From IMG/VR virus record IMGVR_UViG_3300033402_000312: a DNA stretch of 64,000 nucleotides, one strand, 5' to 3'. Made by a program: the position numbers and the translations under genes. Position 1 is the first letter of the stretch; each line of letters opens with the position of its first letter. This document shows, one piece after another, positions 5,978 through 63,999 of this stretch. The DNA is from a virus. The notes beneath the pieces were generated by a model. That model did not search any database. It had not been told where the DNA came from and saw nothing but the letters and a program-made list of their open reading frames with translations.

Positions 5978-5990
5978 GGAGCCTAATACT

Positions 5991-12822: not shown

Positions 12823-12838
12823 AAATCTCAGATACCAC

Positions 12839-39216: not shown

Positions 39217-39570
39217 TTACGTAACGACAAGGAAATAGACCGATGTCGCTGACAATAGGTTGCTGCTCAGGTCGTAGGTGTACAGCCCGAAAACTCGTGT
39301 GGACGGGAAGCCGCTCGGAATCACGAGGGTGCCGCCGCTGACGGTCGGGTTGGCGATTATGCCGGTGTCGAACGGTGGCGAACTGTTGAAAGCCGTGATG
39401 CGGACTTTAGCGACATTGAACGTTGCCCAAACCAAGGTAACCGGGGTGTTGGGGGCCACGGGGGATGCGGGCATCGAAGCCAGGGAGGCGTAGGGCGGCA
39501 GGCTTCCGTCCCCCGCCGTGGTGTACGACGCTACCAACGCGAAGCCGCCGATCAGAGGCAGTGACGGCAT
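39217..39570 (-). CDS. virion structural protein (117 aa)
   Basis: Pro/Ser/Thr/Val-rich beta composition. Start overlaps the stop of the upstream Ig-like gene by 1 nt. Confidence 0.45.
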   Translation of the reverse strand: MPSLPLIGGFALVASYTTAGDGSLPPYASLASMPASPVAPNTPVTLVWATFNVAKVRITAFNSSPPFDTGIIANPTVSGGTLVIPSGFPSTRVFGLYTYDLSSNLLSATSVYFLVVT

Positions 39571-40565
39571 CAGGGCACCACCACTACCACGGTGTTGGAC
39601 GTGCTGCCAGCGAAGTAGCTCTCCGAGGGCGGGGAGGTCGGCACCACTACCACGGTGTTGGACGTGCTGCCAGCGAAGTAGCTCTCCGAGGGCGGGGAGG
39701 TCGGGGGCATGTATTGAGCGCTAAGGCTGTGCGTGCCGGGGGGAAAGAAGTTATTGCCAGCGGTCAGCACCATTCCCCACAGTATTGTTTCGTATATGTT
39801 AGAAGCTAAAGCACCGTTTGTTACAGTAAACGTGTAGGTTCCAGGCGATGCTATGATTTGATCCCAAGCTGAGGCACTTTCGGTCCCGTAAGGCGGGGGA
39901 TTCACTCTGTTCGTAAACGTTCCCGGAGACATCACGACAGACCAAGTACCGGCTGTGTAGGAATAATAAAACAAGACCGCTTGTTGGTTGGGGGCCGTAG
40001 TAGTAAGGCTCACGCTGATAGTGGGCGTGTGCGGTATTGTCACATTGGATGCAGAGGCAACCAATGCCGGAACCCCAGAACTCCCCGCATATTCCACCAG
40101 AAAAATGTTGGCACCGCCAGGGGTTTGACTATAAGTTGCTGTTACCGAATTTGAGCCGCCTGCAATGTTCTCCGCCATAAAGACAGAAGTCCAACGTAAA
40201 TCAGTCGGGTAGTCAGCGGTACCCAACTGGGTGTAGTGGTTGTGGTTGGTGTCGCTGACGCCGAATGTCCCGGCCAACGCGTTGTTGATGTCGATATACA
40301 CAAGAAGAGTGTTCCCCGGTACGTTGGTAAACGGCAGTGTGGGACTATTGAGGTTTCCCGCTTTGAATTGGTAAAACGTCGGTTCCGGGGTGGGGAGCGT
40401 TAGAACGGCAACCCCGTCCACCAGGGTCACTGGGCTGCCGATGGGGGTTGTCCCAGGCGGCGACCCGCCTGAATCATAGAACTGCACTGTCCCAACCGGG
40501 GCAGACGGCGGAACGGGAGGGGGTGGGGTTGAAACTGTCACTGTAGCAGTCAATGTTGTTGGCAT
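39570..40565 (-). CDS. Ig-like (bacterial Ig-like domain) structural protein with C-terminal tandem 20-aa repeat (331 aa)
   Basis: TVQFYDSGGSPPGTTPIGSPVTLVDGVAVL is a Big-type Ig segment. The C-terminus carries TSPPSESYFAGSTSNTVVVV twice. Confidence 0.55.
   Translation of the reverse strand: MPTTLTATVTVSTPPPPVPPSAPVGTVQFYDSGGSPPGTTPIGSPVTLVDGVAVLTLPTPEPTFYQFKAGNLNSPTLPFTNVPGNTLLVYIDINNALAGTFGVSDTNHNHYTQLGTADYPTDLRWTSVFMAENIAGGSNSVTATYSQTPGGANIFLVEYAGSSGVPALVASASNVTIPHTPTISVSLTTTAPNQQAVLFYYSYTAGTWSVVMSPGTFTNRVNPPPYGTESASAWDQIIASPGTYTFTVTNGALASNIYETILWGMVLTAGNNFFPPGTHSLSAQYMPPTSPPSESYFAGSTSNTVVVVPTSPPSESYFAGSTSNTVVVVVP
39575..39704. repeat. in-frame tandem direct repeat, 2 copies of ~60 nt (one copy has 3 extra nt); coordinates approximate
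   Basis: GCACCAC(CAC)TACCACGGTGTTGGACGTGCTGCCAGCGAAGTAGCTCTCCGAGGGCGGGGAGGTCGG occurs twice back-to-back at the 3' end of 39570..40565. Confidence 0.6.
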
Positions 40566-42890: not shown

Positions 42891-43874
42891 TTAGATACCG
42901 AGATTGTCTGTATTGCTGGCTTTCCGGGCTTTGTGAGACGCCCTCATCCTTTGCCTAGTGGACTCTGGGCGTGTCTTTCCCGCCCAATATCCGGGCTTTC
43001 CGAAGCGGTTATTGCCAGCCCCCTGCCTCTGTTCGGATAGCCGCTTGCGTGCTTCATCCGACCATTTCCAGTGCTTTCCCTCGGCTGCCACGCGGACTTT
43101 CGCGGCGTGTTCCTTCGAAAGTTTGCGTCCATCCAATGTTTCGCTGATCTTGTCAGCGACTTCCTTGGGGCAGCCGCCTGCACGATGGTGCCGATCTCTG
43201 TGCGGGAGGTAGGAATAGGCGTTTGGTTTTCCCTTCTCTAGTTGATGATGCGCTTTGCTTCTTTCGCCTACTTTCATCTTAAATTCGCTTGAATGATAAG
43301 TGGGCCTCCCCAAGCAAAATCCTCGCTCCAAAGACGATTGAACCTCCTCGACTGGGACACGGTAAGACTCTTCTCCCTTGTGTACCCATTGGCGCGGCGG
43401 AGCGACCTGTGTCCATCCATCTATGAGCTTGGTGTCGAGTTCTTCGGCGGACACCACGGTGTGCAGCTTGCCTTTGTAAATATGCATCCAGCCTTCGACT
43501 GACACAGCGCCGGAGCGGATGCGCTCGTATTCTAGTGACATGTCCCGCACCAACGCCTCGTCGTAATTGCTCTGCACCAAAATGTTGAGGCGCTCCACGG
43601 ATGCCATCTTGAGGAAGGACAAGTAAGCAACCGGATGCTTCGGCAAAGCGCGGTAGAGGTAGTAGTGCGCTACGAAATGGTCGGACGGTGTGAGACGCTT
43701 CAGATTCCATGAGTGGTCTCTGAACGACTCGAACTCGGGGAACATGGCGCGTGGCAGAATGTGGTGGCGATGGCTGCGACCTGCCGGGGATTTGGCGGAC
43801 GTGACAAAATCCAGATAAGCGCCAATCCAATTCTGGTCAGCGCCCAGCCGACCGAAGTACGTTTTGAAATCCAT
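42891..43874 (-). CDS. HNH homing endonuclease with NUMOD-like C-terminal DNA-binding repeats (327 aa)
   Basis: SHRHHILPRAMFPEF...NLKRLTPSDHFVAHYYLY (HH...N...H HNH_3 pattern). C-terminal LSKEHAAKVRVAAEGKHW and GKPGYWAGKTRPESTRQRMRASH NUMOD-like repeats. Confidence 0.75.
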   Translation of the reverse strand: MDFKTYFGRLGADQNWIGAYLDFVTSAKSPAGRSHRHHILPRAMFPEFESFRDHSWNLKRLTPSDHFVAHYYLYRALPKHPVAYLSFLKMASVERLNILVQSNYDEALVRDMSLEYERIRSGAVSVEGWMHIYKGKLHTVVSAEELDTKLIDGWTQVAPPRQWVHKGEESYRVPVEEVQSSLERGFCLGRPTYHSSEFKMKVGERSKAHHQLEKGKPNAYSYLPHRDRHHRAGGCPKEVADKISETLDGRKLSKEHAAKVRVAAEGKHWKWSDEARKRLSEQRQGAGNNRFGKPGYWAGKTRPESTRQRMRASHKARKASNTDNLGI

Positions 43875-43967: not shown

Positions 43968-44927
43968 TTAGTTCTCACCCGTGTTCGCCGAGCTAACGAA
44001 ACGTCCGTTAACCGTCAAACGCTGGACTCCCGAAGGATTGAAAACCAAAAATCCCAAATTCTCGAAGATCGAGAAGCCGATCTGGCGGAGGTCCGGACGG
44101 TCGGCAGACATCACCGTGAGCGGAATACGCTCGGGGATGACGCCGAGGAACTCTGCGTCCGCAAGGATGTAAATGGAGCCGTAGCCGACCTTACGGGACT
44201 GGAGCAGCGTTGCGCCCCAGAGGTAGCCCATGACGCCGGTCTTGAGCAGCTTGCGCTGGGTTTCGCGGTCGATGTTCTGCTGAGTCCACTTGAGCAGGTC
44301 GGTGTAGTCGCGCGGGTTGAAGAACACGAACGCAACCGAGAGGTCGTGACGCTGCACCTGACCGAAGCCATCAGCCATGCTGTTGATGTCGATAGGGGCG
44401 TTGATCGCGATGTCCGGGTTGTACACCGGGTCGTTTGCCGCGTGCGTTGCCGCTGCGGAAGCGACTGCGTCGAAGAGCGAGAAGACGTAGGCGTCTTCCT
44501 GCGCTCCGACTTCTGCCTTCGCCAAGTTCAGGGAACGGGCGACGAGGTCGAAGCGGCGCTCCTTGATCTGGGTGATGGGGATCATCGGGTTGGAGACGAT
44601 TTCGAACGTCGGCACGGTGACGCGCTTCGGCTTGGTGACGCGGACGATGTCGCCGCCCTCTTCACCAACCACGAAAGCTTCGACGAAGGACGAGCCGGGT
44701 GTGGAGCCGACTGTCATCGCCGCCGTGTCGAATTCCTTGTCGTAGATCGGCAGTGCGCCGTCAGGCAGTGTCTCGACCATGAGCGCCTTGCGTGCGATGC
44801 TCATGTAGTCGCGACGGCGGCGAAGGGAAGGACCCAACGACGCTGCGAGCTTCTGGCGTCCGCCTGCTGTCTTGAGCAGTTGCCCAAGCATTGCGGTCTG
44901 TTGCTGCGTGCGTGAAAGATTTGCCAT
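43968..44927 (-). CDS. putative major capsid protein (319 aa from the internal ATG)
   Basis: ATG at 44927 preceded by TTAGGAGAAAAA. Sits after the scaffold-like gene and is followed by the strongest terminator in the window. Size and composition are compatible with an HK97-fold coat protein. No motif-level proof. Confidence 0.5.
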   Translation of the reverse strand: MANLSRTQQQTAMLGQLLKTAGGRQKLAASLGPSLRRRRDYMSIARKALMVETLPDGALPIYDKEFDTAAMTVGSTPGSSFVEAFVVGEEGGDIVRVTKPKRVTVPTFEIVSNPMIPITQIKERRFDLVARSLNLAKAEVGAQEDAYVFSLFDAVASAAATHAANDPVYNPDIAINAPIDINSMADGFGQVQRHDLSVAFVFFNPRDYTDLLKWTQQNIDRETQRKLLKTGVMGYLWGATLLQSRKVGYGSIYILADAEFLGVIPERIPLTVMSADRPDLRQIGFSIFENLGFLVFNPSGVQRLTVNGRFVSSANTGEN

Positions 44928-44968
44928 GATAGTTTTTCTCCTAAGAAGTTGTCTTAGTCGATTCCCCC

Positions 44969-45541
44969 TTACAGCAAGCTCGCAACGCCCAGCCACGGCT
45001 CGGGAGCCGTGGGGACGTGCGTGACGATGCCAACGGCAGGCGAGGCTGAACCCTTGTGAGCGGAGTCAGTGTACTTGCCGACGTTGGATTTTGTGTTGCC
45101 GCCTGCGTAGGCGTACTGCCCGAGCGCGAAGTTCGCGTTGGCATCGTAGCCTTGGAAGTCAACGTTGCCTTGCCACAAAGCGCGGACAACAGGAGCCTTG
45201 CGGGAGCCGGAAGGCCCGATAGCACCAGCGAACTCGCCGGGGCCATTGAGCAGTGTTGCGAACGGGACGTTGCCCTCGGAAGCGCCATAGGAAGGCGACG
45301 CCGCGTCAGTGTCAACGGGGACGATGTTTCCAATGGAACCCATCGCAGGCTCGTATGACGGCTGGAACGCAAGGGGGGCGGTCAAGGTCGCGGACGAGTC
45401 GATGATCGCCACGATGACGCCGCCGAGGTAGCCAGCGGAGGTAAGAGTCTGTTGGTCAGTGCCCGGATCGCCGGTCAGGAAGACGGCCGGGGTGCAATTG
45501 ACCGAATCGTTCTGACCATAGTATGTCAATTTCAAAGACAT
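44969..45541 (-). CDS. head-module protein (190 aa), Gly/Ala/Ser-rich; decoration or minor capsid candidate
   Basis: ATG preceded by TGGAGAAA. Located between the scaffold-like gene and the capsid gene. Confidence 0.45.
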   Translation of the reverse strand: MSLKLTYYGQNDSVNCTPAVFLTGDPGTDQQTLTSAGYLGGVIVAIIDSSATLTAPLAFQPSYEPAMGSIGNIVPVDTDAASPSYGASEGNVPFATLLNGPGEFAGAIGPSGSRKAPVVRALWQGNVDFQGYDANANFALGQYAYAGGNTKSNVGKYTDSAHKGSASPAVGIVTHVPTAPEPWLGVASLL

Positions 45542-45733
45542 AGTGGTTTCTCCAGTTTATGAAACGAAAAGATACGCTCTTGATTTGCCTAACCCAATCC
45601 GGTCACCTTGGGGGCGAGTAGGACTATAGGTTTTGGCGCGTATACACTTAAGGGGGTGGTAGCGGGGATTTTTGTTCATTATCGACGTGCCACGTGCAGT
45701 ATTAGTCTGGAGTCCAGTTGAGGAGACGCAGCT

Positions 45734-46312
45734 ATGACCAAGGGAACAAGAAGAATCTATTACCAATTCTCGACGTCCAGAGGGGTAGGCTCTTGGTTCA
45801 TCCGCTGGTTCACTTGGTCAGAGTTCAGCCACGTGGACTTGGTGGAGCCGGACGGCTGGCTTCTGGGTGCCCGCCTCTTCGCTAACCATGCGCCAAGCGG
45901 GAAAGGCGGTGTGCAACGGAGACCGCCCGAGTACGTCAAGTTCACTAAGACCCTTCGTGTCTGCATCGAGGTGACGCAGACCCAATACGAAACATTCTGG
46001 GCGGAGGCGCACAGGCAGATAGGCAAGAAGTACGACTGGCTGGCTGTCTTTGGGTTTCTGTTCAAGAAGGACTGGCAGAACCAAGATCGGTGGTTTTGCT
46101 CAGAGTTTGGTCTTTGGGTGGCTGTGCAGGCTGGGGTGCGAATGCTGAACCTTAGCCGCATAGACAGGTGCTCCCCAGAGCTACTTCTCTGCTCGCCTGA
46201 GTTTCACAGAGAAGACGAAGACGAGTACTACAAATACTACTCTGAGTGGACGATTGGAAAACGAGATTGGCCACGAAGCCCGATGCCCGCTTCTCGAACC
46301 TTCGTTAAATGA
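45734..46312 (+). CDS. permuted papain-fold (NlpC/P60 superfamily, YiiX/YaeF-like) amidase/peptidase (192 aa)
   Basis: ATG preceded by GAGGAG. Has SHVDLV (His) ahead of DRWFCSEFGLWV (Cys in a CSEL/F-type context), the His-before-Cys order of permuted NlpC/P60 enzymes. Confidence 0.5.
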   Translation: MTKGTRRIYYQFSTSRGVGSWFIRWFTWSEFSHVDLVEPDGWLLGARLFANHAPSGKGGVQRRPPEYVKFTKTLRVCIEVTQTQYETFWAEAHRQIGKKYDWLAVFGFLFKKDWQNQDRWFCSEFGLWVAVQAGVRMLNLSRIDRCSPELLLCSPEFHREDEDEYYKYYSEWTIGKRDWPRSPMPASRTFVK

Positions 46313-46345
46313 AAAAAGGGCAGGAGCTATTTGCCCCTGCCCTTG
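46311..46345. terminator. bidirectional intrinsic terminator (approximate)
   Basis: AAAAAAGGGCAGG-agctatttgcc-CCTGCCCTT. On the minus strand the hairpin is followed by TTTTTTCATTT. On the plus strand it follows the stop of 45734..46312. Confidence 0.7.
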
Positions 46346-46367
46346 TCGTGCAGCCTTTCGGCTGGAG

Positions 46368-48593
46368 TTAAAATTCGTCGTCGCCAAGCAGTGCGCCAGC
46401 GATGTCGAATGGCTTCTGCTCCGAAGCGGTGATATTCTTGAGCTTCTTGATGACCGGGACCTTCTCGGCAACCTTCTCCTTGGCGGGAGCGGCTGCGTTG
46501 GCTGCCTTCGCGGACGATGACTTCGGCGCTTGCAGAACGTTGGTCTCGTCCTGCTTGACGCGCTTGAAGCCTCCGTCCTCGGGCTTCTGGTCTTCGATGG
46601 CTTCCGCGAACAGGTCGCCTTCGTGGTCGTTCTCGTTGTCGCGGCTCTCGCCGGTCGCGGAGTCAGACTCGAAATGCTTCGCGGCTTCGCCTGTGAACGA
46701 CGGGACGACTTCCATCCCGGCGACTTCGGCTGCGGTGCGAACCTCGCCTGCGATCAGTGCGCGGAGAGGGTCGGAGTCGGAGCCTTGCAGGGAGAAGAAG
46801 TCCTCCATCGATGCGATCTGCGTGTCGTCGAGGCTGGCTTCCATGCTCTCTGCGGCGGACGGAGCGAAGTACTCTTCGCCATTGCCCGCGACGTGCTCTT
46901 CGCCTTCGTTGGCAAGGGCGGAGACCTTTTCTTCTATCTCGTCCTCGTTGAAGACCTTCGCAAGGTCAAGCTCCTCTTCTCCCTCTTGCAGGATTTCCTG
47001 CTCAAGGGCTTTGATGGCTTCCTGCGCCTCCTCGATTTTCTCCTCAACGACCATCTTCTTCTCGTCGCTTAGAACTTCGCCAGCAGTGTCAGCTTCCGCG
47101 CCTTCGTCCACCGGCAAGTCTGCCGGGGCTTCCTCAATCGGGGCCTCTTCAACCGGGGCTTCTCCGAGAGCTTCCGGGGCTTCCTCAATCGGGGCCTCTT
47201 CAACTGGAGGTACATCCCCTGCGGGAGCGTCTATCGTCTCGTCAGCCTTCTTGGCTGCGGCTTCCTTCGCGCCGCACTTACACGGTCCCTCGCACTTGCA
47301 TTCTGCTTCAGCCTTCTTGGGCGCTGCGGCTGCCTTGGAAGCTGCCTTGCCGTCGCCTTCGGACTTGTTGACTGTGTTCTCGGGACGGTTGGCAGCCTCG
47401 GTCTGCGATGCAGACGTGCCTGCATCCATGGGCTTCGGCTCGGTATGCTTGCCGCCGCCTGCGCCGCGCCCATCGTTGTAAGTCTCGGTCTGCGGTCCCG
47501 CGTCCTTGCGGTCGTCAGCCTTCTTCTCAACGGCGGCGTTCTTGGGATCGCCCTTGACTTCGGCTGCGACTTCTTTTTTGAGGGACGAGAGGACTGAGGG
47601 GTCTTCTAAGGCATCGTTAAGCTCGACCTTATGGACTTGCTTGAAGGTCTCGGCAAGCTTGGAATAGTGCGCGTTTTTTGCCGTCTGACGAAGCATCGCG
47701 TTCAGGACTTTCGTGCTGTTTGAGAGCAAGCTGGATGCGGCGTCCTTCTGCGCCTCTGCCGGAGCGGTCGGGAGCATCGTCTTAGCGATAGTCCACGCGG
47801 CCGCGACGCGCTGCTGCGCCTCGCGCCTGATAGCCTCGCGCTTGGTCTTCACTTCTGCCAGCTTCTCTTGCACCGAAGCTTTGGCTGGGGTCGAATTTGC
47901 CATGTTGGAGCCTTCCTTTTTCGTGTCAGAACGGGCAGAAACGCCCTTCTTAACAGGGGATGCGTAGCTGTTTTTCTTGCCGATTGCGTCCTTGCTTTGT
48001 CTAACTCCGCAGTAAATGCACTGGTTGTTCGGGTCGTTGCCTGGGTTTTGCCCGCAAACCCAGCACTTCTTGGCAGCAGTCACCGAGGCTGTCGGAGGTT
48101 CCAGCGGGGCTGGTTCTGCTGCTGGTTCTGCGGCGGGGATTTCAGGTGCCGGAGCGGGTTCGGCAGGAAGTGCTTCAGGAGCGGGGGGTATTGCTGCCTC
48201 AGGAACAGGGGCTGCTTCCGGCAGAGGTGCCGGGGCTGCCAAGCCGGGGGCGGGTGCTATGCCGCCAAGCTCGTCTGCCGCTGCCACTTCCCCGCCAGCG
48301 ATGTCGCTGATCTCGATGTCGATCTCGCCGAGCAAGCCCTTTATCTGCTCAGACCACGGGCCGTCCTTGAACTTCTCCCACTGGGAGATAAGCTCGACCC
48401 CCTCGCGCATCTGCCGAATCTCTTCCTCAAGCTCCTCGCGCTTCTCGGACAAAAGGTCAAATTCAGGAGAGACTGCCATGTTGGCTGGAGCCTCGGGTGC
48501 CATCTCAGGCATGCCCATGATTTGGTCGTCCATTACGTCCAGATCAGCTTGCTTCTTCGCCAATGCAGCTTGCAATTTCTTTAAGTTTGCCAT
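46368..48593 (-). CDS. acidic low-complexity scaffolding-like protein (741 aa)
   Basis: ATG preceded by TAGGGAG. Coiled-coil N-terminus, APIEEAPEALGEAPVEEAPIEEAP repeats, CWVCG...CIYCG and CKCEGPCKCG cysteine clusters, pI strongly acidic. Sits in the slot upstream of the capsid gene. Confidence 0.55.
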   Translation of the reverse strand: MANLKKLQAALAKKQADLDVMDDQIMGMPEMAPEAPANMAVSPEFDLLSEKREELEEEIRQMREGVELISQWEKFKDGPWSEQIKGLLGEIDIEISDIAGGEVAAADELGGIAPAPGLAAPAPLPEAAPVPEAAIPPAPEALPAEPAPAPEIPAAEPAAEPAPLEPPTASVTAAKKCWVCGQNPGNDPNNQCIYCGVRQSKDAIGKKNSYASPVKKGVSARSDTKKEGSNMANSTPAKASVQEKLAEVKTKREAIRREAQQRVAAAWTIAKTMLPTAPAEAQKDAASSLLSNSTKVLNAMLRQTAKNAHYSKLAETFKQVHKVELNDALEDPSVLSSLKKEVAAEVKGDPKNAAVEKKADDRKDAGPQTETYNDGRGAGGGKHTEPKPMDAGTSASQTEAANRPENTVNKSEGDGKAASKAAAAPKKAEAECKCEGPCKCGAKEAAAKKADETIDAPAGDVPPVEEAPIEEAPEALGEAPVEEAPIEEAPADLPVDEGAEADTAGEVLSDEKKMVVEEKIEEAQEAIKALEQEILQEGEEELDLAKVFNEDEIEEKVSALANEGEEHVAGNGEEYFAPSAAESMEASLDDTQIASMEDFFSLQGSDSDPLRALIAGEVRTAAEVAGMEVVPSFTGEAAKHFESDSATGESRDNENDHEGDLFAEAIEDQKPEDGGFKRVKQDETNVLQAPKSSSAKAANAAAPAKEKVAEKVPVIKKLKNITASEQKPFDIAGALLGDDEF

Positions 48594-48672: not shown

Positions 48673-49596
48673 TCAACGCCTCAAGTCCCCGCGAAAATCC
48701 GACTCAAGCAAAAACTCCCCGGTATCTTGGGCAAGGGTTTTTGAAGCAATCATGGCAAATTTAGAAGCTGCCGACTGCTTCTTGGTGTACGGGGTCGAGG
48801 GGCCGACCCATTCCTCGGCGACGATGCTTCTTTTCGCGGCTCCGGGGAACGCCGGGGTTGCAACCCAGCTTGCCTCGACGAATTTCACGCCGCCGTTGAC
48901 CATGGTCTTGTGCCCGCAAAGCTCGGCGATGCGGCGCGGGATGCCGTCGTCGTCGGCCAAGAACGTGCCCTTCTGGAAAGAGAGGTGGTTGCAGTACGTG
49001 TTGGCGTCAGTGACGCGGGTCCCGCAGTAGGAGCAGATGACAAGGTCGGTCACGCACCCCATGGACAGGTAGCGGACGTTGCCCTCGCGGATGTCGTTTA
49101 CCAGCTTCTCATGGGTGATGTCGGTCGCCACCAGGATGTCGCAGTAGTAGACCCAGATTTCGGGGGTAATGTTGATCTTGCGCAGGACTTGATCCAAGAT
49201 ATGCCCTTTTGCGTATTTACTGTTCTGAAAATGCTCGACGAAGTTGAAGGCTCCGACAAACGAAGGCGCTGACAGCTTCAAGACTTCGTTAGTCCATGCG
49301 TCATCGTTGTTGTTGACCAGGTGGCTTGTCTCGGGCTTGATCAGGTAATCGAACGGCTCTTCCTCCGTCATCACGCTGCTCATGATCGTTACGTGCGACA
49401 GCAAGTACTTTGAAGAAGAACCAGCGGCCATTTTTCGGCGTGCTGCCGCTGCGCTTCTGCTTGCAACTTTGCAGAACGGATGATCGCTGTCGATGTCGCA
49501 GCCGCGAAACGCACGCTTCCCGAACATCTTTTCCCAGTCGCCGGGATTCAGGATGGGTTCGTTCAACTGCGCGTTTGCTATCTTGTTAAACGGCAT
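48673..49596 (-). CDS. head-module protein (307 aa); prohead protease candidate by position only
   Basis: Lies between the 1883-aa gene and the scaffold-like gene. Contains conserved-looking His/Cys/Ser residues but no motif I can assign. Confidence 0.4.
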   Translation of the reverse strand: MPFNKIANAQLNEPILNPGDWEKMFGKRAFRGCDIDSDHPFCKVASRSAAAARRKMAAGSSSKYLLSHVTIMSSVMTEEEPFDYLIKPETSHLVNNNDDAWTNEVLKLSAPSFVGAFNFVEHFQNSKYAKGHILDQVLRKINITPEIWVYYCDILVATDITHEKLVNDIREGNVRYLSMGCVTDLVICSYCGTRVTDANTYCNHLSFQKGTFLADDDGIPRRIAELCGHKTMVNGGVKFVEASWVATPAFPGAAKRSIVAEEWVGPSTPYTKKQSAASKFAMIASKTLAQDTGEFLLESDFRGDLRR

Positions 49597-49608: not shown

Positions 49609-52600
49609 TTAATGGCTTGGTAAGTTCGTCTTTCCCGCGACAGTCCCGATGCGCTGAACCACCTCGTCGTCCGGGCGCTCGCTCTTGCCCCATGCCGCGT
49701 CAATCTCGCCGAAAAGCGGGTTTTCCGCAGCGCTGCTCTTGTGCCTTTCCTCGCTGGGAACTTCCTCGTCGGGAACTTCTTCATCAGTGAAGTCGTGGAC
49801 GCGCTTGTACGGGTAGCCGTAGAACTCGGCGGTGTACTCCTCACCCGCCATGTCCCACATCTCGTCCATGGTCTTCGAGTTCTCCTCGGCGAGTTGCTTG
49901 ATGTAGCCCTCCTGCATGAAGTGGCGCTTCACCTCGTCCTCAGCGTCCTGCTCCTGTTCGAGAAAGTACTGCGCCTCCTCGCCGCGCTCCGTGTCCTGTT
50001 GCGCGTACTCGGCGGTTTTTGATGCCATGCGCTCCTCTTGTTCTTCCATTGAAGGACGTCGATGTGACGGATTAAGGTTTATACTGTACGGAGTTAAGCT
50101 CATTGGAACCTCACGTTCATCAACCTTCGGCGTTATCCTTACCTCCGCTGCGGGTAACTTATTGACGTGGTCGCGTAAAGCAGTACGAGCTTTCAAAAAA
50201 CTTTGCCATTCTGGTGTGCGCCTTCGCTCAAACTTGTTCTCCTGATAGCCTTTCGCCCAACTCCATGGCGTCTCTTTTTCTTTGGCTTTATACAGCTTGT
50301 AGGCTGTCACGACCTGCTTGCACAACTCAAGAAGTCTCGGTGCATTCCTGCCCGTGGCTTTTTCGACTAATGTCATGAAGCGCTTTGACGGATTATCCGG
50401 GGTAACAAACAGAAACTCCTTTGCCTCCCCAAGGAGAGAGGCGATCTTGCCTTTGCCCTCAAGCATCCTGCGGATGTCTGCGGGGCGCGACCATTCGGGA
50501 AGCTCCTTGGCGTCCAAGTCTGGCGGAAAATAGAAAATCCATTTATCCGTGACGGACGGCTCCCAGTTAGCGGCGAACGCCGTTGCCTGCGCGATTTGCT
50601 GCGGCGTCAGCCCTTTCGGCGGAAGGTGATAGAACAGCACGCCATCGTGCAAACCGACGCGCAGCGCCCCGGTGTCCTTAAGGAACGCGACAATCGCTTC
50701 CTCGTCCTCGTACTCTTCGTCGGTATAAAAGTTCTCAACCGTGAAATGGTCCATGTCGTCGCAATTCAAGATGGTGCCGTTCCGAAGGACGTAGATACGC
50801 TCATTGTCCACGGAGCCGATGCCGAACTGGTCGAGAGCAAGCTTTTCAAGTTCCTGCTTGCTGCGAGCGGCCGTCTTCGGGCGGGTTCCTTTGCTAGCGC
50901 ACTCCTTCGAGCAGAACGGGCGGCAACCCTCTGATTTCTTGTAATAGTTCGGTCCGCCGCAAACCGGGCAGTGGTGGCTCGGCTGCTTGACTTCGATTGC
51001 CGCGACCACGCCGTCAGGATTGATGCGCGGGTCGATCATCGGAATGCGCTTCTTTTTCGGGTTCAGCGGCTCATGCACGCCCTGCATCACGCCCTTGGTG
51101 AGCAAGTCCTGCTCCTGCTGGTCGAGGTGCTCCTTCATGTCGTCGCGGGGCGGGAGCTTGTCCGATGTCTCGTGCATCTCGATCAGCGCTTTCTTCTTGA
51201 GCAGAAAGGACTGGAACTGAAATCGCATCTGGTTCTTGTCTGTCTTCTGCTGCGGCGAACCGCCCTCGGTGTACCACTTCTCCATAAGCTCTGGCGCTTC
51301 GTACTCCTCATCACGGTCGCTGTAGTCCGGGTTCGGGTCAACCCAAAGCTCAAGCTGTCCATCACTGATGTCCTTCGGACCGTCGCTCAGCATTCTCGAC
51401 GCGCCCCAGCGGTCGAGAACTTCGTAGACCGGGGCGATCCTCCATTCGTAGCCGAAGCTCTCGTCGAACTTTGGGCCGTAGCGAAGCTCGGTGTAGACGT
51501 TGTCGTTGCGCTCGCGCATGCCGTCAGTGAGTTCGTAGTGAAGGTCGCTCGTGCGGTCATCCGCGTATCGCGCCTCGCCGCTGAGGCGGTAAGCCTCATG
51601 GATGTTTTTCCAAACCGAGCAGTCCGGTGCATAGCGTGCCATCGTCAGAAGAATTGACCGCATTTGGTTCTCATCTGTAAAGTCAATCTGCTGAACTTCA
51701 CGAGAAGAAGTGACTCGGCCTGCTTTTTGCTCCTGCGCCCACCATTGGAGCACCCCCTCTTCTTCCTGCTGGAGAGACTGACCGATCCGGCGCATCGCAT
51801 CGTAGCTGAGCGCTTTCACAAGCTCGTCCGCCATCTCCCTGTCATCAGGCATTTCCGGCGTGGGTCTGGTGCCCTCCGACCTCAGCGCGTAATACAGCGC
51901 GTCGTTTGCGCCCTCATTGCCGATCTGGGAGACACACTCCTCTAGGTCGTCCCACTCGCGCACGATCCACAGGTCTTGCTCGGGGCGGAAGTTGCGCTTG
52001 TCCAGCCCGGATTCAGGGGCGATACGCTCCATGAACTGCTCCCACATCTCGCTAGGGAAGAAAGTCTTCGCGTAAAAGTGCTCGTTTTTAGCGTCAGACG
52101 CAATAAGCGCTTCCTCGTGGAATGTGCCGTCTGGCATTGGTTCGATCCCCGGCGTGTCGCGCCATGCCCGCTTCAGTACTTCGACTGCGTATTTCGCTGA
52201 GCCAAACGCAGTCTCAAAGTTTGGCTGCGCTTTGTGTAATTTTGCTTCAAACTCCGGCCAGCGTCCTTTGATGACTCGAAGGGCATAGTCTACTGCCTGT
52301 GACATCATTGACCTGACTCCATATTTTTCGCTGCTCTTGGTGGGGAATGCTTTTTGTAGAATCTTCTTTTCGCCCGCTGCCCAACGCCCCCTGACAAATT
52401 CAAGCGCGTAATCCGTTATCTCTTGCTCCCTATCTTTGGCGCTGAGAACGGCTTTCTCCAACGGTGCCCATCGTTGCCCGGCGTGGAATTTTGCCCCGTA
52501 CCTCATAAGGAGAGGCAACTCGACCTGTTTCCCGAGGTGCTGCTCTTCCTCGGGGCTGAGAGGCTCGCCCTTCGCCAACGCGTACTGTACTGCCATGGTG

Positions 52601-55212
52601 CGGGTCTTCGTGCCTTTTGCCGATTCCTCCTCCTTTTTCTTGCCGAGGATTTCCACCAACGTTGCGGGGTCGGTGGCATTCTCCTTTACCCAAGCCGCGA
52701 CGTCCGGCGCTTTCGCGGATAGAAGCTGAAGCCCGCGCAAGGCGGTCGGGTCGTCAACGAATTTGGCGATGGTCTGCCCCTCGTCCTCGATCTCCTGAAC
52801 CATGCACACGTCGGTGCGATTCATAAGCTGATCGGAGGCGGGATGAAGCTGTGCGAAGGCGCTGCCGCCCTTGAAGAAGACGTAGCTGGGACCCTCGCTG
52901 AGATACTGCTTGCTCCACTTATTGTGCGCCGTGCACCAGTTCGTGCCGCCCGAAAGCTCCATGAGCGCGGCAGCGTCTATGACCTTATAGATCGTGAGGT
53001 CGCCGTCTTTCACGATGATCTCCGATCCTTTGGCGACGTCTTGGCGCACTTTCTCCTTTTTGCTGACCGCCTCTTGGTTCTGTTTAACGGTCTCGTACAG
53101 GGATTCCGGCATGTACGACTGAATGTCTTTGTTGCCTTGGAATTTCGGCGACTTCTTCAGCTTGTTGAACAGGTCAAGCTGCTGCTTGAGCTTCGGGGCA
53201 TCCTCGGGGAGCTTGATCAGATTCCTGCCGAGCCACTTCGCGATTGTTGCGACGAAGTCCGTCTGATTCGGGCTGGGGTCGGCTTGGATGCAAAATTCAA
53301 TCTGTTCGGGTGTGAGCCTGAACTGTTTCTGCAAAAGCTCGATCTTCTGCTCGGTAGGGCGTGCAGACTTGGCGAACCATCCGCAGTTGTCGGTGCTGCC
53401 GATTTTCCCCATCGCGACAGCTAGGTCGTTGCCATCCACCTCGGAGGCCCACAGGCGAGCTTGGCTGTCATATTCGTTTTCTTCAGACGAAGTCATGTTC
53501 AGCATCGCCTCGCCCTCGTCGAGTTCCTCTTCGTCGGAAGCCCCCGCGTCGGGGTTGTCGGTGCCGCCTATCGGCGTGCCCATGCCGTAGCTCTTGGTCG
53601 GGACGTCAGCGGTTTTTTTGCACGGGTCATTGATGCCCGGAACGATGCCGTGACCCCAATTTTTCCCGCAGGAGTTGCATTTCGCCGTTTCGAAGTCGGC
53701 AGGCATCAGACCGTAGTCGTCCGAGCCGCAGTGCGGGCACTTTGGCTTGCCGCCCAGCTTGACTTCCCTGTTCTGGATCACCGCCTTGACCATCTCTGGC
53801 TCAAGCGCATGCACGGAGACGATCTGCTCCGGCTTGACGGAGCCAACGGCTTTCAGCCAGCGCCCGGCGTTCGCCGCCTGCGAGATCGGGTCGGAGGTGT
53901 CAACCTTCCACTGCTCCGTGCCGAACTTGAAGGCAATGATGGAAATCTTGCCCGTGCCCATGCCCTTGTTAAACTCCCAGTCCATCTTGGATGCCCAGCG
54001 CACCGCATCGGCAGGGTTGTCGATTGCATAAATCTCGCCCTCGCCGTAGCGCTCGCCTTCCGGGCTGCCCTTGATCCAGTTGGAGGCCTGAAGCGGGAGG
54101 ATTCCCTTCTGCCTGATGCTTGGGACTTTGTCCGTGAACGTGACGTGGTACAGCGTTCTGCCTGCGCCTGCTGCCGTCCTTGCAAGCTCGGCGATGGTGA
54201 CGAGGCTGGCATCCTTGTGCGGCTTGTCGCCCTCGTCCCATTCCGCGCAGCAGGCAAGGGGAACAATGTGCATCCCCCAGAAAGCACACCATGACTTGCG
54301 ACCGTGCTGGTCTGGGGCTTCCGCCTCGGTGCCGTACTCGCAGCGGTGGCACCCGAAGCCGCCCTCGTGCTCGGCGTACTTGGCTTCCGCCCTGGAGAAC
54401 TTCTTCTCCATCGGCATCTGGTTTTCCGGGCTGCCTCTGTGGTACAGTCGGCACGACCCCTTCTCGAAGCTGATGGGTCCGTTGACGCGCATGCACTCGT
54501 CTGTACCTTGCCGCATGTCGCACGTCCCGCACAGGTAGTTGCCCTCCGGGTCGAATGACTTGATGTTGTCGGTGTTGACGTTGTCGGCAGGCTCGGCATA
54601 TTGCGACCACTGCTTAGCTTCCCTGCGCACGTGGTCTTCGTGCTCAAAATCGTACTGGCCTGAATCAGGGAACTGCCCGTGCGCTTTTTTGACGACTGGC
54701 GCGTGCTTGTAAAACTCGTGCTCCGCCTTGTCTTCTTCGACAGGGACAATCTCGCGAGCTTCCTTCTCTTCGCCTTGCACTTCCCTTAGCACGTTCTCAA
54801 TTGGCTTCACGCCGAGGCTGACGAGCGTAGCCTGCGCCTCGACCTGCGCCTCGCTCCAGTCCGGGTGCGCCTCGGCGATCTGGATATAGGTGTTGAGGTG
54901 GCGGCGATTCGCCGGGCGGCGGTGGTAGCGGGTCCCGACCTTCGGCTCGGACTCCTTGAAGAACTCCGCGTCCTCCGGGCCGGACGGGGGCGCAAGGTCT
55001 TTCGGCGGGATGACCACATTGATCTCGCCCGAGTTCCTGTCGCCCTTGTTCTCGAACTCGGTGCCCTTGCTCCCCCCGGTGCCGCCGATGGGGCTGGCGT
55101 AAGGCTTGTTGCCCTTGTCCACGCCGTGACCGCCGAGCGACTGGTAGTCGTCGGTCATCATCGAATCCAGAAGGGCGTCAAGGGCGCGTTTCTTCAGCAG
55201 TGGGGATTTCAT
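49609..55212 (-). CDS. giant protein (1867 aa from the ATG at 55212; 1883 aa from the GTG at 55260) with zinc ribbons and a possible ART-fold segment
   Basis: CGTCDM...C, CHRCEYG, KCPHCGSDDYGLMPADFETAKCNSCG, and CPVCGGPNYYKKSEGCRPFCSKEC ribbons. The segment LYHVTFTDKVPSIRQKGILP resembles the LYHGT...I...GL-P start of Tpt1/DarT-type ADP-ribosyltransferase folds. Confidence 0.7.
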   Translation of the reverse strand: MKSPLLKKRALDALLDSMMTDDYQSLGGHGVDKGNKPYASPIGGTGGSKGTEFENKGDRNSGEINVVIPPKDLAPPSGPEDAEFFKESEPKVGTRYHRRPANRRHLNTYIQIAEAHPDWSEAQVEAQATLVSLGVKPIENVLREVQGEEKEAREIVPVEEDKAEHEFYKHAPVVKKAHGQFPDSGQYDFEHEDHVRREAKQWSQYAEPADNVNTDNIKSFDPEGNYLCGTCDMRQGTDECMRVNGPISFEKGSCRLYHRGSPENQMPMEKKFSRAEAKYAEHEGGFGCHRCEYGTEAEAPDQHGRKSWCAFWGMHIVPLACCAEWDEGDKPHKDASLVTIAELARTAAGAGRTLYHVTFTDKVPSIRQKGILPLQASNWIKGSPEGERYGEGEIYAIDNPADAVRWASKMDWEFNKGMGTGKISIIAFKFGTEQWKVDTSDPISQAANAGRWLKAVGSVKPEQIVSVHALEPEMVKAVIQNREVKLGGKPKCPHCGSDDYGLMPADFETAKCNSCGKNWGHGIVPGINDPCKKTADVPTKSYGMGTPIGGTDNPDAGASDEEELDEGEAMLNMTSSEENEYDSQARLWASEVDGNDLAVAMGKIGSTDNCGWFAKSARPTEQKIELLQKQFRLTPEQIEFCIQADPSPNQTDFVATIAKWLGRNLIKLPEDAPKLKQQLDLFNKLKKSPKFQGNKDIQSYMPESLYETVKQNQEAVSKKEKVRQDVAKGSEIIVKDGDLTIYKVIDAAALMELSGGTNWCTAHNKWSKQYLSEGPSYVFFKGGSAFAQLHPASDQLMNRTDVCMVQEIEDEGQTIAKFVDDPTALRGLQLLSAKAPDVAAWVKENATDPATLVEILGKKKEEESAKGTKTRTMAVQYALAKGEPLSPEEEQHLGKQVELPLLMRYGAKFHAGQRWAPLEKAVLSAKDREQEITDYALEFVRGRWAAGEKKILQKAFPTKSSEKYGVRSMMSQAVDYALRVIKGRWPEFEAKLHKAQPNFETAFGSAKYAVEVLKRAWRDTPGIEPMPDGTFHEEALIASDAKNEHFYAKTFFPSEMWEQFMERIAPESGLDKRNFRPEQDLWIVREWDDLEECVSQIGNEGANDALYYALRSEGTRPTPEMPDDREMADELVKALSYDAMRRIGQSLQQEEEGVLQWWAQEQKAGRVTSSREVQQIDFTDENQMRSILLTMARYAPDCSVWKNIHEAYRLSGEARYADDRTSDLHYELTDGMRERNDNVYTELRYGPKFDESFGYEWRIAPVYEVLDRWGASRMLSDGPKDISDGQLELWVDPNPDYSDRDEEYEAPELMEKWYTEGGSPQQKTDKNQMRFQFQSFLLKKKALIEMHETSDKLPPRDDMKEHLDQQEQDLLTKGVMQGVHEPLNPKKKRIPMIDPRINPDGVVAAIEVKQPSHHCPVCGGPNYYKKSEGCRPFCSKECASKGTRPKTAARSKQELEKLALDQFGIGSVDNERIYVLRNGTILNCDDMDHFTVENFYTDEEYEDEEAIVAFLKDTGALRVGLHDGVLFYHLPPKGLTPQQIAQATAFAANWEPSVTDKWIFYFPPDLDAKELPEWSRPADIRRMLEGKGKIASLLGEAKEFLFVTPDNPSKRFMTLVEKATGRNAPRLLELCKQVVTAYKLYKAKEKETPWSWAKGYQENKFERRRTPEWQSFLKARTALRDHVNKLPAAEVRITPKVDEREVPMSLTPYSINLNPSHRRPSMEEQEERMASKTAEYAQQDTERGEEAQYFLEQEQDAEDEVKRHFMQEGYIKQLAEENSKTMDEMWDMAGEEYTAEFYGYPYKRVHDFTDEEVPDEEVPSEERHKSSAAENPLFGEIDAAWGKSERPDDEVVQRIGTVAGKTNLPSH

Positions 55213-55355
55213 CCTAATAGAAGAACGGGAAAGTCCGAGAAAACAGAGAATATAAAGCACTGAAAACGCAGGAGATCGCTACTGGACATTTTTTGATGCC
55301 CGGCTGTATACTATTGGCGTACGAACGGCATCAAATAAGAAGGAGGAAGGAACCC

Positions 55356-61224: not shown

Positions 61225-63999
61225 TCACAAACTTGTTTGGACGGTGAACGTCACCGACAAGTACAGCAAGCTGAAGATAGGCGCGAAGGTGACCGTCACG
61301 TCAACTTCGGTCGGGTCGTTCGGGTTCTGGATGACCACAAGGCTCTGGTACCCGGAGATGATCTGCAAATCCTTCAGGTTCTTGAGCAGGCTGTTGCTGA
61401 CCACCGTGATGTCGGTCACGAGGCTGTCCACCAGCTTGCGGCCGATGAACTGCTGCAAGGTCGAGCGGAACTGCTGCGCGACGTAGTCCGCGATGGTCGT
61501 CGAGGTCGGCTCGCTCACGAGCGTGTTCTGCGGGTCTGTGGTCTTGTAGTGGCGGATGAGCAGGCTGCCGTTGTTGTCGAGCAGCCAGGTCAGGCCGTTC
61601 GCTGCCCCGAGGTCCATCGTCGGGTTGTCGTAGGTGATGAGCAGGCGGCTGAACCCGACCAGGTTCTGGAGGGTCAGCGTGGTCGCCACGTCGTTTGCCG
61701 GGTTGCAGTTCAGGCCAGCCATCGCGGCTGCCATGAACGGTCCGTCAACGAGGTATTCTATTGCGACGCCCGTCGTCGGGTTGGTGATCAGGATGCCCGC
61801 CGCTGCGTTGCCGATGGCGATCACGCGCTGGCTGAGCAGGCTTTGCGCGTTCGCGCTCGCTTGCGCAGCCGTCGTGAACTGGCTGTATCCCACGAAGCTG
61901 ATTGCCTCGCCCTTGTACCGTGCGGTCGCCTGGGTCGTCAACTGGCGGCTCAAGGCCTGGTGCACTGTCGGGTCGTTGCTCAGCGGCACCACGACGTCCG
62001 CCTTGCGGTTGAGGCCGGGCAGGTTGCTCGTAAGCTGCTGGAGCGCCGCGATGTAGTCGCTGGAGGCAGCCACGTTCGTGCCGGGCTGCACCGGGACTTG
62101 GATCGCACCGAAGGTCTGCACGCCGTTCAGTGCCATCAACTGGATGCCCAGCGAGAGGCGGTTGATCGTGGAAGGCTGCCCGTAGTTGCTGTAGGCTGCC
62201 GATGCCGACGTGTAAAGCTTGAGGGCGTAGTCGCTCGCGACCTTGTTCGTCGTGAAGGTCACATAGTAGAACGTGCCGACAGCCGGTCCGTCGCCGCTGC
62301 CACGGAAGGTGCTGACGACAACCGTGTCGCCGGTCGTGGCGTTGTAGTCCGAGACTACTTCCGTCTTCAGGCCGGGGATCGCGATTGCGTTGTTGCTGTA
62401 CGCCGGGGAGATGCCGGGGGTGCCGCAGTTGCGTGTCGCCGCGCTCGCGCCGGAGGCGTCAGCCTTCACGATGAACCGGAGCGTGTCGCCCACCCCATAG
62501 CTGTAGCTTGCCGGGATCGAGGTCACGCCGTAGGCGACGTGGTCGGCCGGGTTGACGATGGTGACGCGGAATCCGGTCACGATGTCGATGTACGTTTGGT
62601 CAAGGTAGCCGATGTTCGACCCGCCAGTGCCGGAACCCCTCGGGTTGGTCGAGGTGACGGTGTAGCTGTGCGTGACCGGGGTGAAGACCGCGTCAGCGCC
62701 GCCAACCAAGTTGGCTGCCGCAGTGGTCGCCACGTTCGTGGTGTTCGGCGTCACGACTGTCGCGAGAACCTGACCGCCGCTTGCCGTCCCTGCGGACGGG
62801 AAGTTTGCCGCGATCTGAGCCAAGGTCTGCAACGCGCCAGTCCAATTGGCGTATATCGTAACGAGGTTGCCGCTGACCGTCACGGGGACAGGACTCAGGG
62901 AGGACGCGTCGAGCGCGATCTGCACGCTGTCGCCGTTTGCGCCCGGAACTGACGCGGTGAAGGTGATCGAGCCGTTGGAGCCGAAGCTCGTCGTAAGGTG
63001 AGCCTGCACTGCCGGGGTGGTCACGCTGTTGCCGTCGTTGTTGAACGTGAGGGTGATCGTCTCGTCCACCGCCGCCCCGGCGACCGCCTGCGCGTCGCCT
63101 GTCTGGTACGGGCTGTCGAACGACACCACGCCCGGATAGATGATGCCGGTCTCGCCGAACGCAGCGCCCTGCGCAACCGAGTTCGCGCCGCCGATGACAA
63201 GCGGGGCGATGCGCCCCAGTTCGTCGGCGATCTGGTAAGTGCCCAGTCCGACGTAGCCGGGGGTGACGACTGAAACCGTGTACTGGTGCGAAGCCAAGGT
63301 GTTGCGGTAGTAGGATGCCCACACGCCCACCGGCTGGGCTGGCTGGCTTCCGCCGCCGCTTGACGGCTGAGGGGGATTGAACAGGGTGACCTGCTGCTGC
63401 GCCTCACCGCTGAGCGCCGCCACTACGACCGCGCCAGCTTCGAAAGCCTCCAGCGGGTCGGAGCCGACATAGACTTTGATGAGCGACGGGTTGTCCGTTG
63501 GGCGGCCCAATCCGCTGCCGTCAGTCGGCGTGTCAGGAATAGAGAAGACCGCGTTGCGGCCGTTGACGACGCCGGACAGCGGGCGGAGCCAAACCTGCTC
63601 GTCCACAAGGGTTGTCAGAATCTCGGACGGGGTGAAGTTCGCAAGCTCGCCAGCGGACGACGTGCCGACCGCCTCGCTCACGTTGTTGCCCCAGTTGACC
63701 GTGTTCGACACGACGTTGCCCAGCTTGTCGTATGCCTCGCCGAGGACGTAGTCCACGCCCTGTGCGAAATCCGTGCGGTTCGGCCCGAGGCCGACCTCGA
63801 TGATCGAGGCGACATTCGAGCTTGGGAGCAAGTCGAACGTGTTCTGCCACGTGTTGTAGTAGTAGGTGAACGTGAGGGTCGAGCCGTATGCCACCGGGCT
63901 GGCGAGGGTGATCTGGCCAGCACCGCCGTTGACCGCCGCAACCACAACAGGGGAGCCGTTGACCAAAGCGGCGACAAGCGCCGGGTTGGTCGTGGTCAC
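61225..63999 (-). CDS. putative contractile tail sheath protein (>=924 aa; the gene probably continues beyond the window end)
   Basis: The C-terminal ~120 aa (LLIRHYKTTDP...IADYVAQQFRSTLQQFIGRKLVDS...VDVTVTFAPIFSLLYLSVTFTV) follow the conserved sheath C-terminal pattern. Central Ig-like insertions. First in-window start is a GTG 1 nt from the edge. Confidence 0.55.
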   Translation of the reverse strand: MTTTNPALVAALVNGSPVVVAAVNGGAGQITLASPVAYGSTLTFTYYYNTWQNTFDLLPSSNVASIIEVGLGPNRTDFAQGVDYVLGEAYDKLGNVVSNTVNWGNNVSEAVGTSSAGELANFTPSEILTTLVDEQVWLRPLSGVVNGRNAVFSIPDTPTDGSGLGRPTDNPSLIKVYVGSDPLEAFEAGAVVVAALSGEAQQQVTLFNPPQPSSGGGSQPAQPVGVWASYYRNTLASHQYTVSVVTPGYVGLGTYQIADELGRIAPLVIGGANSVAQGAAFGETGIIYPGVVSFDSPYQTGDAQAVAGAAVDETITLTFNNDGNSVTTPAVQAHLTTSFGSNGSITFTASVPGANGDSVQIALDASSLSPVPVTVSGNLVTIYANWTGALQTLAQIAANFPSAGTASGGQVLATVVTPNTTNVATTAAANLVGGADAVFTPVTHSYTVTSTNPRGSGTGGSNIGYLDQTYIDIVTGFRVTIVNPADHVAYGVTSIPASYSYGVGDTLRFIVKADASGASAATRNCGTPGISPAYSNNAIAIPGLKTEVVSDYNATTGDTVVVSTFRGSGDGPAVGTFYYVTFTTNKVASDYALKLYTSASAAYSNYGQPSTINRLSLGIQLMALNGVQTFGAIQVPVQPGTNVAASSDYIAALQQLTSNLPGLNRKADVVVPLSNDPTVHQALSRQLTTQATARYKGEAISFVGYSQFTTAAQASANAQSLLSQRVIAIGNAAAGILITNPTTGVAIEYLVDGPFMAAAMAGLNCNPANDVATTLTLQNLVGFSRLLITYDNPTMDLGAANGLTWLLDNNGSLLIRHYKTTDPQNTLVSEPTSTTIADYVAQQFRSTLQQFIGRKLVDSLVTDITVVSNSLLKNLKDLQIISGYQSLVVIQNPNDPTEVDVTVTFAPIFSLLYLSVTFTVQTSL

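Follow-up and report, generated by a model that had tools for sequence, protein, structure and literature searches.

The Escherichia coli protein YaeF (b0193), an exported lipoprotein of the peptidase C92 family, was the best profile match of a small enzyme gene found in a 64,000-nucleotide stretch of viral DNA (IMG/VR record IMGVR_UViG_3300033402_000312; the whole stretch is called the window below). Two related permuted enzymes, E. coli YiiX and BcPPNE of Bacillus cereus, have been crystallised; in YiiX the hydrophobic S1 tunnel was occupied by a fatty acid, and cleavage of fatty-acyl amides, not of cell-wall peptides, was proposed for it, while a lysine ligand was seen in the BcPPNE crystal (PMC3142127). 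In such enzymes the triad is completed by a Glu from the strand that follows the His strand (Glu64 in BcPPNE); LRAT can dispense with this third residue and PPPDE1 lacks it (PMC3142127). Phospholipids are hydrolysed by Tox-Act1 and TseH (PMC12994826), and Staphylococcus aureus LnsA takes part in lipoprotein N-acylation (PMC7387801). The window gene encodes a 192-amino-acid (aa) protein, termed the hydrolase here, and lies between a 741-aa scaffold-like gene and a 190-aa head gene. As a whole, the locus is probably best explained as a soluble, catalytically intact, permuted NlpC/P60 enzyme that is carried as optional cargo and acts on fatty-acyl bonds.

Members of the same subfamily are already present in sequenced phages. 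The window protein groups with CDS-28 of Alteromonas phage V22 (QHZ59751.1), with proteins of Alishewanella phage Slicko01 (WGH49686.1) and isolate ctfzr933 (UOF76987.1), with gp26 of Ralstonia phage RsoM1USA and with PHROG 1128. A total of 50 cultured-phage records was obtained (37 Ralstonia, 8 Vibrio, 2 Alishewanella, 2 Alteromonas and 1 uncultured). The name 'permuted papain-like amidase' is in use in V22, Slicko01, Slickus01 (also Alishewanella) and ctfzr933, and the subfamily is thereby represented and named in public phage genomes, to which the window gene adds one member. The RefSeq copies (NC_049432.1 gp26 and NC_048847.1) bear the PHROG 1128 name 'enoyl-CoA hydratase/carnithine racemase-like', which looks like an annotation error because the fold and active-site evidence given below contradicts it. 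The V22 member was listed by its authors under 'protein catabolism' (PMC7289586), and a characterised phage member of the family was not found in the literature searched. The cultured-phage members share 31–36% identity with the window protein over approximately 75% of its length (E 1e-9 to 6e-19). Like it, they are small, stand-alone, free of an export signal and accessory in position; unlike it, they share the strand of the genes around them and directly follow tail-fibre or chaperone genes, whereas the window gene is reversed within a head module. The window protein also differs from them in a lineage-specific, low-confidence C-terminal tail of about 35 residues (residues ~155–192).

The hydrolase open reading frame (ORF) could be confirmed as a real gene because the product matched PHROG 1128 (E 2e-25), a first search of a 5.8-billion-protein set gave 20 homologues, and a profile built from the homologues recovered 3094 cluster representatives at E <= 1e-3 and 959 at E <= 1e-10 from a set of 1.84 billion representatives, clustered at 50% identity. 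A spurious frame opposite a genuine gene was ruled out, as no long minus-strand gene is overlapped and the homologues number in the thousands. The sequence-only reading of this DNA had described an opposite-strand gene with its own Shine-Dalgarno sequence, and both points could be verified. The hydrolase is the sole + strand gene amid minus-strand head genes (protease, scaffold-like, 190-aa and major capsid), all large neighbours being on the minus strand, and a GAGGAG motif precedes its ATG at a spacing of 8 nt. Neither a signal peptide nor a membrane segment was found in the product (maximum 19-residue Kyte-Doolittle mean 1.0), which has a pI of 9.2. The identical protein was recovered from at least 8–9 contigs of several peat or soil samples. 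One contig on which it is recorded is listed at 894,233 bp, and relatives of the head module occur on IMG/VR contigs of up to 463, 332, 300 and 231 kb; the window therefore derives from a very large phage lineage, or from a still larger assembly, of peat and soil metagenomes.

Assignment of the protein depended on the family profile. The Pfam scan of the protein gave no match, PF05708 included, only 4 of the 20 relatives touched PF05708 (best E 0.001), and a single-sequence search against the Protein Data Bank (PDB) returned noise only, with NeoN at E ~1. The family profile, when compared with the PDB, matched BcPPNE (3kw0, E 3e-4) with FSH and CSEF aligned, and YiiX (2if6) at E 0.03. By hhalign, the profile aligned with E. 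coli K-12 YaeF at 97.7% (E 2e-12, 150 columns) with SHV and WFCSEF aligned, and with E. coli K-12 YiiX at 85% (E 6e-6) with the H, GKPYD and C in register. An AlphaFold2 model built on the alignment reached a predicted local distance difference test (pLDDT) score of 79.7 and a predicted template modelling (pTM) score of 0.76, the last ~20 residues alone being disordered. The predicted fold is papain-like alpha+beta, with His33 on a beta-strand and Cys122 at a helix N-terminus. Foldseek comparison of this model with the PDB gave 2if6 and 3kw0 as the sole significant matches. Against the viral models of BFVD it gave phage and giant-virus proteins, several of them named 'permuted papain-like amidase', and the poxvirus protein OPG091/G6R. 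These poxvirus and giant-virus permuted papain-like amidases share the fold (E 6e-4 to 3e-3), yet they are eukaryotic-virus proteins of 244–285 aa with 13–20% identity to the hydrolase.

The motifs S32-H33-V34-D35-L36-V37 and W120-F121-C122-S123-E124-F125, quoted in the sequence-only reading, were located at residues 32–37 and 120–125. Its argument that the His-then-Cys order fits a permuted enzyme of the YiiX/YaeF type was upheld: the catalytic His33 precedes Cys122, as expected of the circular permutation, and both residues align with those of 3kw0, YiiX and YaeF. The protein can thus be assigned with high confidence to the permuted NlpC/P60 enzymes of the YaeF/YiiX type (MEROPS C92-like). 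Family members are nearly all 145–200 residues long and begin directly at the first beta-strand. Among 165 family representatives, counted on ungapped sequences, His33 and Cys122 are conserved in 100%, Gly45 in 163 (99%), GGVxxR in ~99%, Trp114 in 98%, and Asp101 and Glu124 in 97% each. Position 35 is Asp in 91% and Glu in 5%, while position 100 is occupied by Tyr in 68% (113) and by Phe in 30% (50) of the representatives. Tyr100 stands in GKKYD (GK(P/K)YD in the family) and aligns with the tyrosine of YiiX GKPYD (Tyr115).

Comparison with YaeF revealed several common elements, namely FS(T/S)S near the N-terminus, S-x-x-IR, SHV, GV, WFCSEF and a distal SP(A)DL. However, YaeF has an N-terminal extension of ~70 residues, whereas the phage protein begins directly at the first strand without an export signal; the YiiX signal peptide is likewise lacking, and identity to YiiX and BcPPNE is 15–24%. 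The scores with the NCBIfam models of YaeF (14.8 bits, cut-off 279) and YiiX (13.5 bits, cut-off 216) were both sub-threshold, so that the phage protein is not an equivalog of YaeF. The active site also differs. The triad Glu (YaeF VAEATG, YiiX VFEAVG, BcPPNE IMESVE) is replaced by Gly45 of the phage family in every alignment, and the position two residues after the His, which is Ala in YaeF and Gly in YiiX and BcPPNE, is Asp35 (SHVD). In the predicted beta-hairpin (strands 33–37 and 43–47) residue 35 pairs with residue 45, and we infer that the acidic partner of the His may have moved from one strand to the other, with Asp35 in place of the triad Glu. Since the curated thresholds were failed and both the export signal and the triad Glu are lacking, the hydrolase subfamily is a divergent, phage-borne one and not an orthologue of YaeF or YiiX. 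Other clades are formed by TseH (6v98), Tox-Act1, LnsA, LRAT/PLAAT and MARTX RID, which are secreted or membrane-anchored and accompanied by immunity or partner genes, unlike the window gene, which has no toxin system in its neighbourhood. Membership of the LRAT/PLAAT or TseH/Tox-Act1 clades was ruled out by structural scores far below those of YiiX and BcPPNE and by the absence of such a context.

The position of the gene was compared across related head modules. An IMG/VR search with the 190-aa head protein gave 69 loci, which were compared by tblastn with six local proteins. The order protease, scaffold-like gene, 190-aa gene and capsid gene was kept throughout, at capsid identities of 65–99%, and the hydrolase was present in none of the 69. 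An empty slot, with 210–222 bp from the scaffold-like stop to the 190-aa start, was found in L012–L018, L024 and L025, whose capsids are 94–99% identical. The equivalent slot held other cargo in more than 30 loci, including opposite-strand GIY-YIG endonuclease genes (PF01541, E 9e-9), HNH-type genes of 313–322 aa, an endonuclease-VII gene, an FkbM-methyltransferase cluster (L029/L059), a collagen-like GYTG-repeat protein (L040/L042) and a block of 3.6–4.5 kb (L028, L075). The homing endonucleases in the slot are mostly on the opposite strand. The gap between the scaffold-like and 190-aa genes (window 45542–46367) is a hypervariable cargo hotspot in a group of very large phages (related loci L010–L075).

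The alignment of empty sites revealed the constant backbone, which consists of the scaffold-like stop, a terminator hairpin with its T-run, TCGNTAATGAA, a conserved leader and the 190-aa gene. The two ends of the window cargo are bordered by backbone homology, one at TTCATTATCGAC (45675–45686) and one at the hairpin. The closest relative, L010, whose 190-aa protein is 86% identical, carries a hairpin pair homologous to that of the window (AGCCGAAAGGCT, then GGCAGGAG...CTCCTGCC with the T-run), and there the stop codon of a GIY-YIG gene abuts the T-run exactly as the hydrolase stop does in the window. With hairpins constant and cargo different, it follows that cargo was swapped on a constant backbone. 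The G+C content at third codon positions gave a modest signal, being 0.66 for the hydrolase against 0.69–0.75 for the neighbouring head genes, with 0.64 for an HNH endonuclease gene. No convincing target-site duplications or flanking repeats were found around the hydrolase insert. The hydrolase is, with little doubt, optional cargo inserted in reverse orientation into a variable slot, and the moron-like insertion proposed in the sequence-only reading was borne out by its absence from every related module and by the empty sites.

The same reading had placed a bidirectional terminator with the gene, which was not supported. The hairpin downstream of the hydrolase is strong, with folding energies of -30.2 kcal/mol (+ strand) and -31.8 kcal/mol (minus strand) that lie far beyond those of shuffled sequences (z -4.9/-6.2). 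A T-run follows it on the minus strand only (TTTTTTCATTT); the + strand sequence after it, TTGTCGTGC, has no T-run, and the terminator scan reported a minus-strand terminator only, with the hydrolase stop codon sitting within its T-run. Because every empty-site relative carries its own hairpin and T-run at the equivalent position, the element belongs to the backbone as the terminator of the scaffold-like gene, met by a convergent cargo gene. This backbone hairpin may also stop + strand transcripts. On the other side of the insert, a hairpin element in the conserved 5' leader of the 190-aa gene marks the boundary of the backbone. Its stem covaries among relatives (TCGCC/GGCGA, CCGC/GCGG and CTGCC/GGCAG), and it could be a structured 5' untranslated region or could serve as promoter/operator for transcription of the 190-aa/capsid unit; an Rfam search gave no match for it. 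The CTATAGTCCTAC part was rejected as a recurrent phage promoter, as the window has one exact copy only, no more than chance would give.

Table 1. Positions of the hydrolase gene, its boundary elements and other features in the window
Feature	Position	Strand	Remark
Coding sequence, permuted NlpC/P60 (YaeF/YiiX-like) Cys-His hydrolase/acyltransferase, 192 aa	45734..46312	+	ATG start; TGA stop at 46310-46312
Shine-Dalgarno sequence GAGGAG	45720..45725	+	ATG 8 nt further on; read from sequence
His33 codon	45830-45832	+	
Asp35 codon	45836-45838	+	
Tyr100 codon	46031-46033	+	
Cys122 codon	46097-46099	+	
Cargo segment (short 5' leader and coding sequence), approximate, versus empty-site relatives	45690..46315		between terminator and TCGNTAATGAA
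Intrinsic terminator of 741-aa scaffold-like gene	46316..46344	-	12-bp stem, then TTTTTT on minus strand
Small accessory hairpin CAGCC GAAA GGCTG	46350..46365	-	between scaffold-like stop codon and main terminator; also in L010
Backbone boundary element, conserved 5' leader of 190-aa gene	45594..45629	-	CTATAGTCCTAC-hairpin-CCGGATTGG
1883-aa giant ORF	49609..55260	-	no Pfam match at E <= 1e-3
Head-maturation-protease-like gene	48673..49596	-	phrog_18299
Scaffold-like gene, acidic, 741 aa	46368..48593	-	
190-aa head gene	44969..45541	-	
Major capsid gene	43968..44996	-	phrog_2522, E 4e-44
HNH homing endonuclease	42891..43874	-	directly after capsid gene
GIY-YIG gene	26503-27306	-	
phrog_4645 endonuclease	12001-12861	-	
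Giant ORF, 1591 aa	12839-17614	-	no Pfam match at E <= 1e-3
Giant ORF, 2072 aa	17629-23847	-	no Pfam match at E <= 1e-3
Giant ORF, 1660 aa	33862-38844	-	no Pfam match at E <= 1e-3
Tail-sheath-like protein	61225-63999 (2594-3772 weak)		
DNA methyltransferase	5183-5977		
Ig-like domains	39570-40565		

The genomic context of family members elsewhere was also evaluated. In RsoM1USA, which is P2-like, the family gene comes after the tail-fibre assembly gene and ahead of the sheath gene, in a slot which we take to be the Z/fun moron site of P2. The V22 gene follows a tail-fibre chaperone gene and the ctfzr933 gene a tail protein gene. Among the IMG/VR loci, 41 of the 76 that could be analysed showed the P2-type order (tail protein I, tail fibre, tail-fibre assembly, hydrolase), often with a Dam methylase or sheath gene next. 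For the remainder, 146 neighbours within three genes were collected from 34 non-redundant non-P2 loci, and lysis proteins were the commonest Pfam families among them (GH108/PG_binding_3 in 4 loci; GH25, SLT, Peptidase_M15_3 and holin in 1–2 each). One member (L171) lies four genes after a phage lysozyme, another (L170) lies between the portal and S49 protease genes of a lambda-like head module, and the nearest homologue, at 41% identity, stands amid small unannotated genes. Overall, the family is mobile accessory cargo, and its link to lysis cassettes is weak and unproven.

A second permuted enzyme was found in the equivalent slot of L074. Its 173-aa ORF, on the strand of the head genes, encodes a distant permuted NlpC/P60 protein whose sole PDB match was 3kw0 (E 0.035), with the SWSH, KPYGY and VCS motifs aligned with the family. 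The gene is flanked on both sides by a 12-bp direct repeat, TCCTCATAGGGA (5293–5304 and 5835–5846), which points to an insertion of the cassette type or to a regulatory motif that recurs. Homologues of the L074 type occur after giant tail-fibre-like genes, one to three genes upstream of endolysins, in three phages.

A catalytic mechanism can be outlined for the window enzyme. Cys122 would form the acyl-thioester intermediate, His33, oriented by Asp35, would serve as the general base, and Tyr100 would stabilise the acyl carbonyl, while the conserved Arg63, Asp101 and Glu124 would bind the polar head group of a fatty-acyl substrate. The target would be an amide or ester bond to a fatty-acyl group in a lipid, a lipoprotein or a lipo-amino acid and not a peptidoglycan peptide, and the enzyme would play an accessory, non-structural part in the infected cell, where envelope or lipid remodelling would aid exclusion, takeover or lysis. 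The lipid direction was chosen because the structural neighbours (YiiX, Tox-Act1, TseH and LnsA) act on or bind lipids, and by this analogy a lipid-type substrate is somewhat favoured. Among the functions that had been offered from the sequence, an acyl-transferase acting on the host envelope comes nearest to the evidence, with the substrate assigned by analogy. Several points weigh against the proposed enzyme and its substrate. The lipid specificity would be transferred from relatives at only ~15–25% identity, the charged conserved residues Asp35, Arg63, Asp101 and Glu124 could suit a polar or peptide substrate, and the canonical polar third triad residue is missing. Furthermore, a scan for sigma-70 promoters over 44800–46800 found none for the hydrolase gene, whose expression is thus presumed, and approximately one fifth of the non-P2 loci have an endolysin or holin gene within three genes.

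This last observation favours a part in lysis, for which the enzyme would reach the envelope late through holin lesions, deacylate phospholipids or lipoproteins and aid rupture as a functional analogue of mycobacteriophage LysB or the spanins. Holin-dependent lysis proteins are normally without a signal peptide, as is the hydrolase, and the positions of the L171 member and of the L074-type homologues point in the same direction. Nevertheless, the enrichment is weak (~7/34 loci against ~10% expected, two-fold at best), most analysable family loci are at the tail-fibre cargo site of P2, remote from the lysis cassette, and sister phages with near-identical capsids lack the gene; among the window proteins tested, neither a lysis gene nor another wall enzyme could be recognised. 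A lysis accessory is accordingly unlikely, though it is the strongest of the alternatives. The lack of other wall enzymes in the window spoke for a peptidoglycan amidase or gamma-glutamyl endopeptidase serving as endolysin or entry enzyme, as did the many peptidoglycan hydrolases and phage endolysins of the NlpC/P60 superfamily and the intact Cys/His/Tyr. However, the S1 site of permuted enzymes is reported to be hydrophobic and unsuited to peptides (PMC3142127), TseH has phospholipase activity (PMC12994826), and the features of canonical NlpC/P60 peptidoglycan hydrolases (Cys before His, a hydrophilic S1 site, a close structural match) were not seen. The protein is a single domain without a cell-wall-binding domain, its gene stands on the opposite strand without a holin or spanin neighbour, and the hydrolase is not the endolysin of this lineage because it is absent from all related head modules. 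The cell-wall-active function of the sequence-only reading was thus not borne out, and wall cleavage is improbable.

Variable cargo slots in unrelated phages, among them the P2-like slot near the Dam methylase gene, would also suit an exclusion, defence or counter-defence factor that alters a component of the host or of an incoming phage and is kept for conflict between phages or with the host, for example by (de)acylating a lipid or protein of the receptor pathway or by removing a ubiquitin-like or acyl mark. P2-like phages do bear defence cargo in hotspots (PMC9122126), but the family is unmentioned in the P2-hotspot literature, none of the PADLOC defence models matched the hydrolase at E <= 1, and it is a single gene without a partner or immunity gene. 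The literature searched gave no experimental link for any family member, and such a factor is rated slightly below a lysis accessory. Because two unrelated subfamilies share one head slot and the family often directly follows tail-fibre or chaperone genes, permuted enzymes might even, as a long shot, be cargo that puts fatty-acyl or ubiquitin-like marks on proteins of the virion or the host, or takes them off; tail-fibre or head proteins, for example, might be modified or be freed of a modification imposed by the host. The location between the scaffold-like and 190-aa/capsid genes, the L170 member and the L074 enzyme on the head-gene strand could further suggest a virion-packaged or capsid-maturation enzyme, such as one that (de)acylates a head protein. 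This is very improbable: the hydrolase gene lies on the opposite strand, downstream of the terminator of the head operon, it is missing even from near-identical modules, the occupants of the slot are mostly selfish endonucleases, and most family members lie outside head modules. Overall, a cargo-borne enzyme acting on fatty-acyl bonds is preferred to these alternatives.

Further observations concern the head-gene neighbourhood. The capsid ORF in its longest form (342 aa from a GTG) overlaps the end of the 190-aa gene; the true start is probably ~23 codons downstream, since the gene calls of identical contigs give a 319-aa product (L001, 8235–9194). The HNH gene that follows the capsid gene was found in some relatives only, and it is one of several selfish-endonuclease-type genes in the structural region of the window (HNH, GIY-YIG and phrog_4645). 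The 190-aa gene of the window is uninterrupted. In L021 (IMGVR_UViG_3300044801_000124, 5768–6006), its homologue is split after codon 6 by ~240 nt (...CTG ACT, insert, TAT TAC GGG...), the upstream exon ending in T and the insert in G, and L022 has a similar insert. This looks like a small ORF-less group I intron beside a free-standing GIY-YIG/HNH gene; Rfam at the gathering threshold gave nothing on the L021/L022 insert. The four giant ORFs of the window gave no Pfam match (Table 1), and most other window ORFs tested were likewise unannotatable, apart from a tail-sheath-like protein, a DNA methyltransferase and Ig-like domains; Rfam searches of the whole window and of 45400–46500 gave nothing meaningful, and tRNAs were not found.

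The biological role of the hydrolase may be exclusion, takeover or support of lysis. For the permuted branch, the label 'NlpC/P60' does not mean a cell-wall hydrolase, which corrects a tempting mis-annotation. The family comprises ~3100 clusters at 50% identity with a distinctive active site, SHVD together with an invariant Gly where the triad Glu would stand, and the biochemistry of one member would annotate thousands of genes. If the modification of virion or host proteins were true, the family would form a class of its own, new among phage enzymes, of post-translational (counter-)modification, and not one of lipid or wall hydrolases. The natural sister genomes with and without the gene make the cargo slot a ready comparison for cargo function in very large peat and soil phages.

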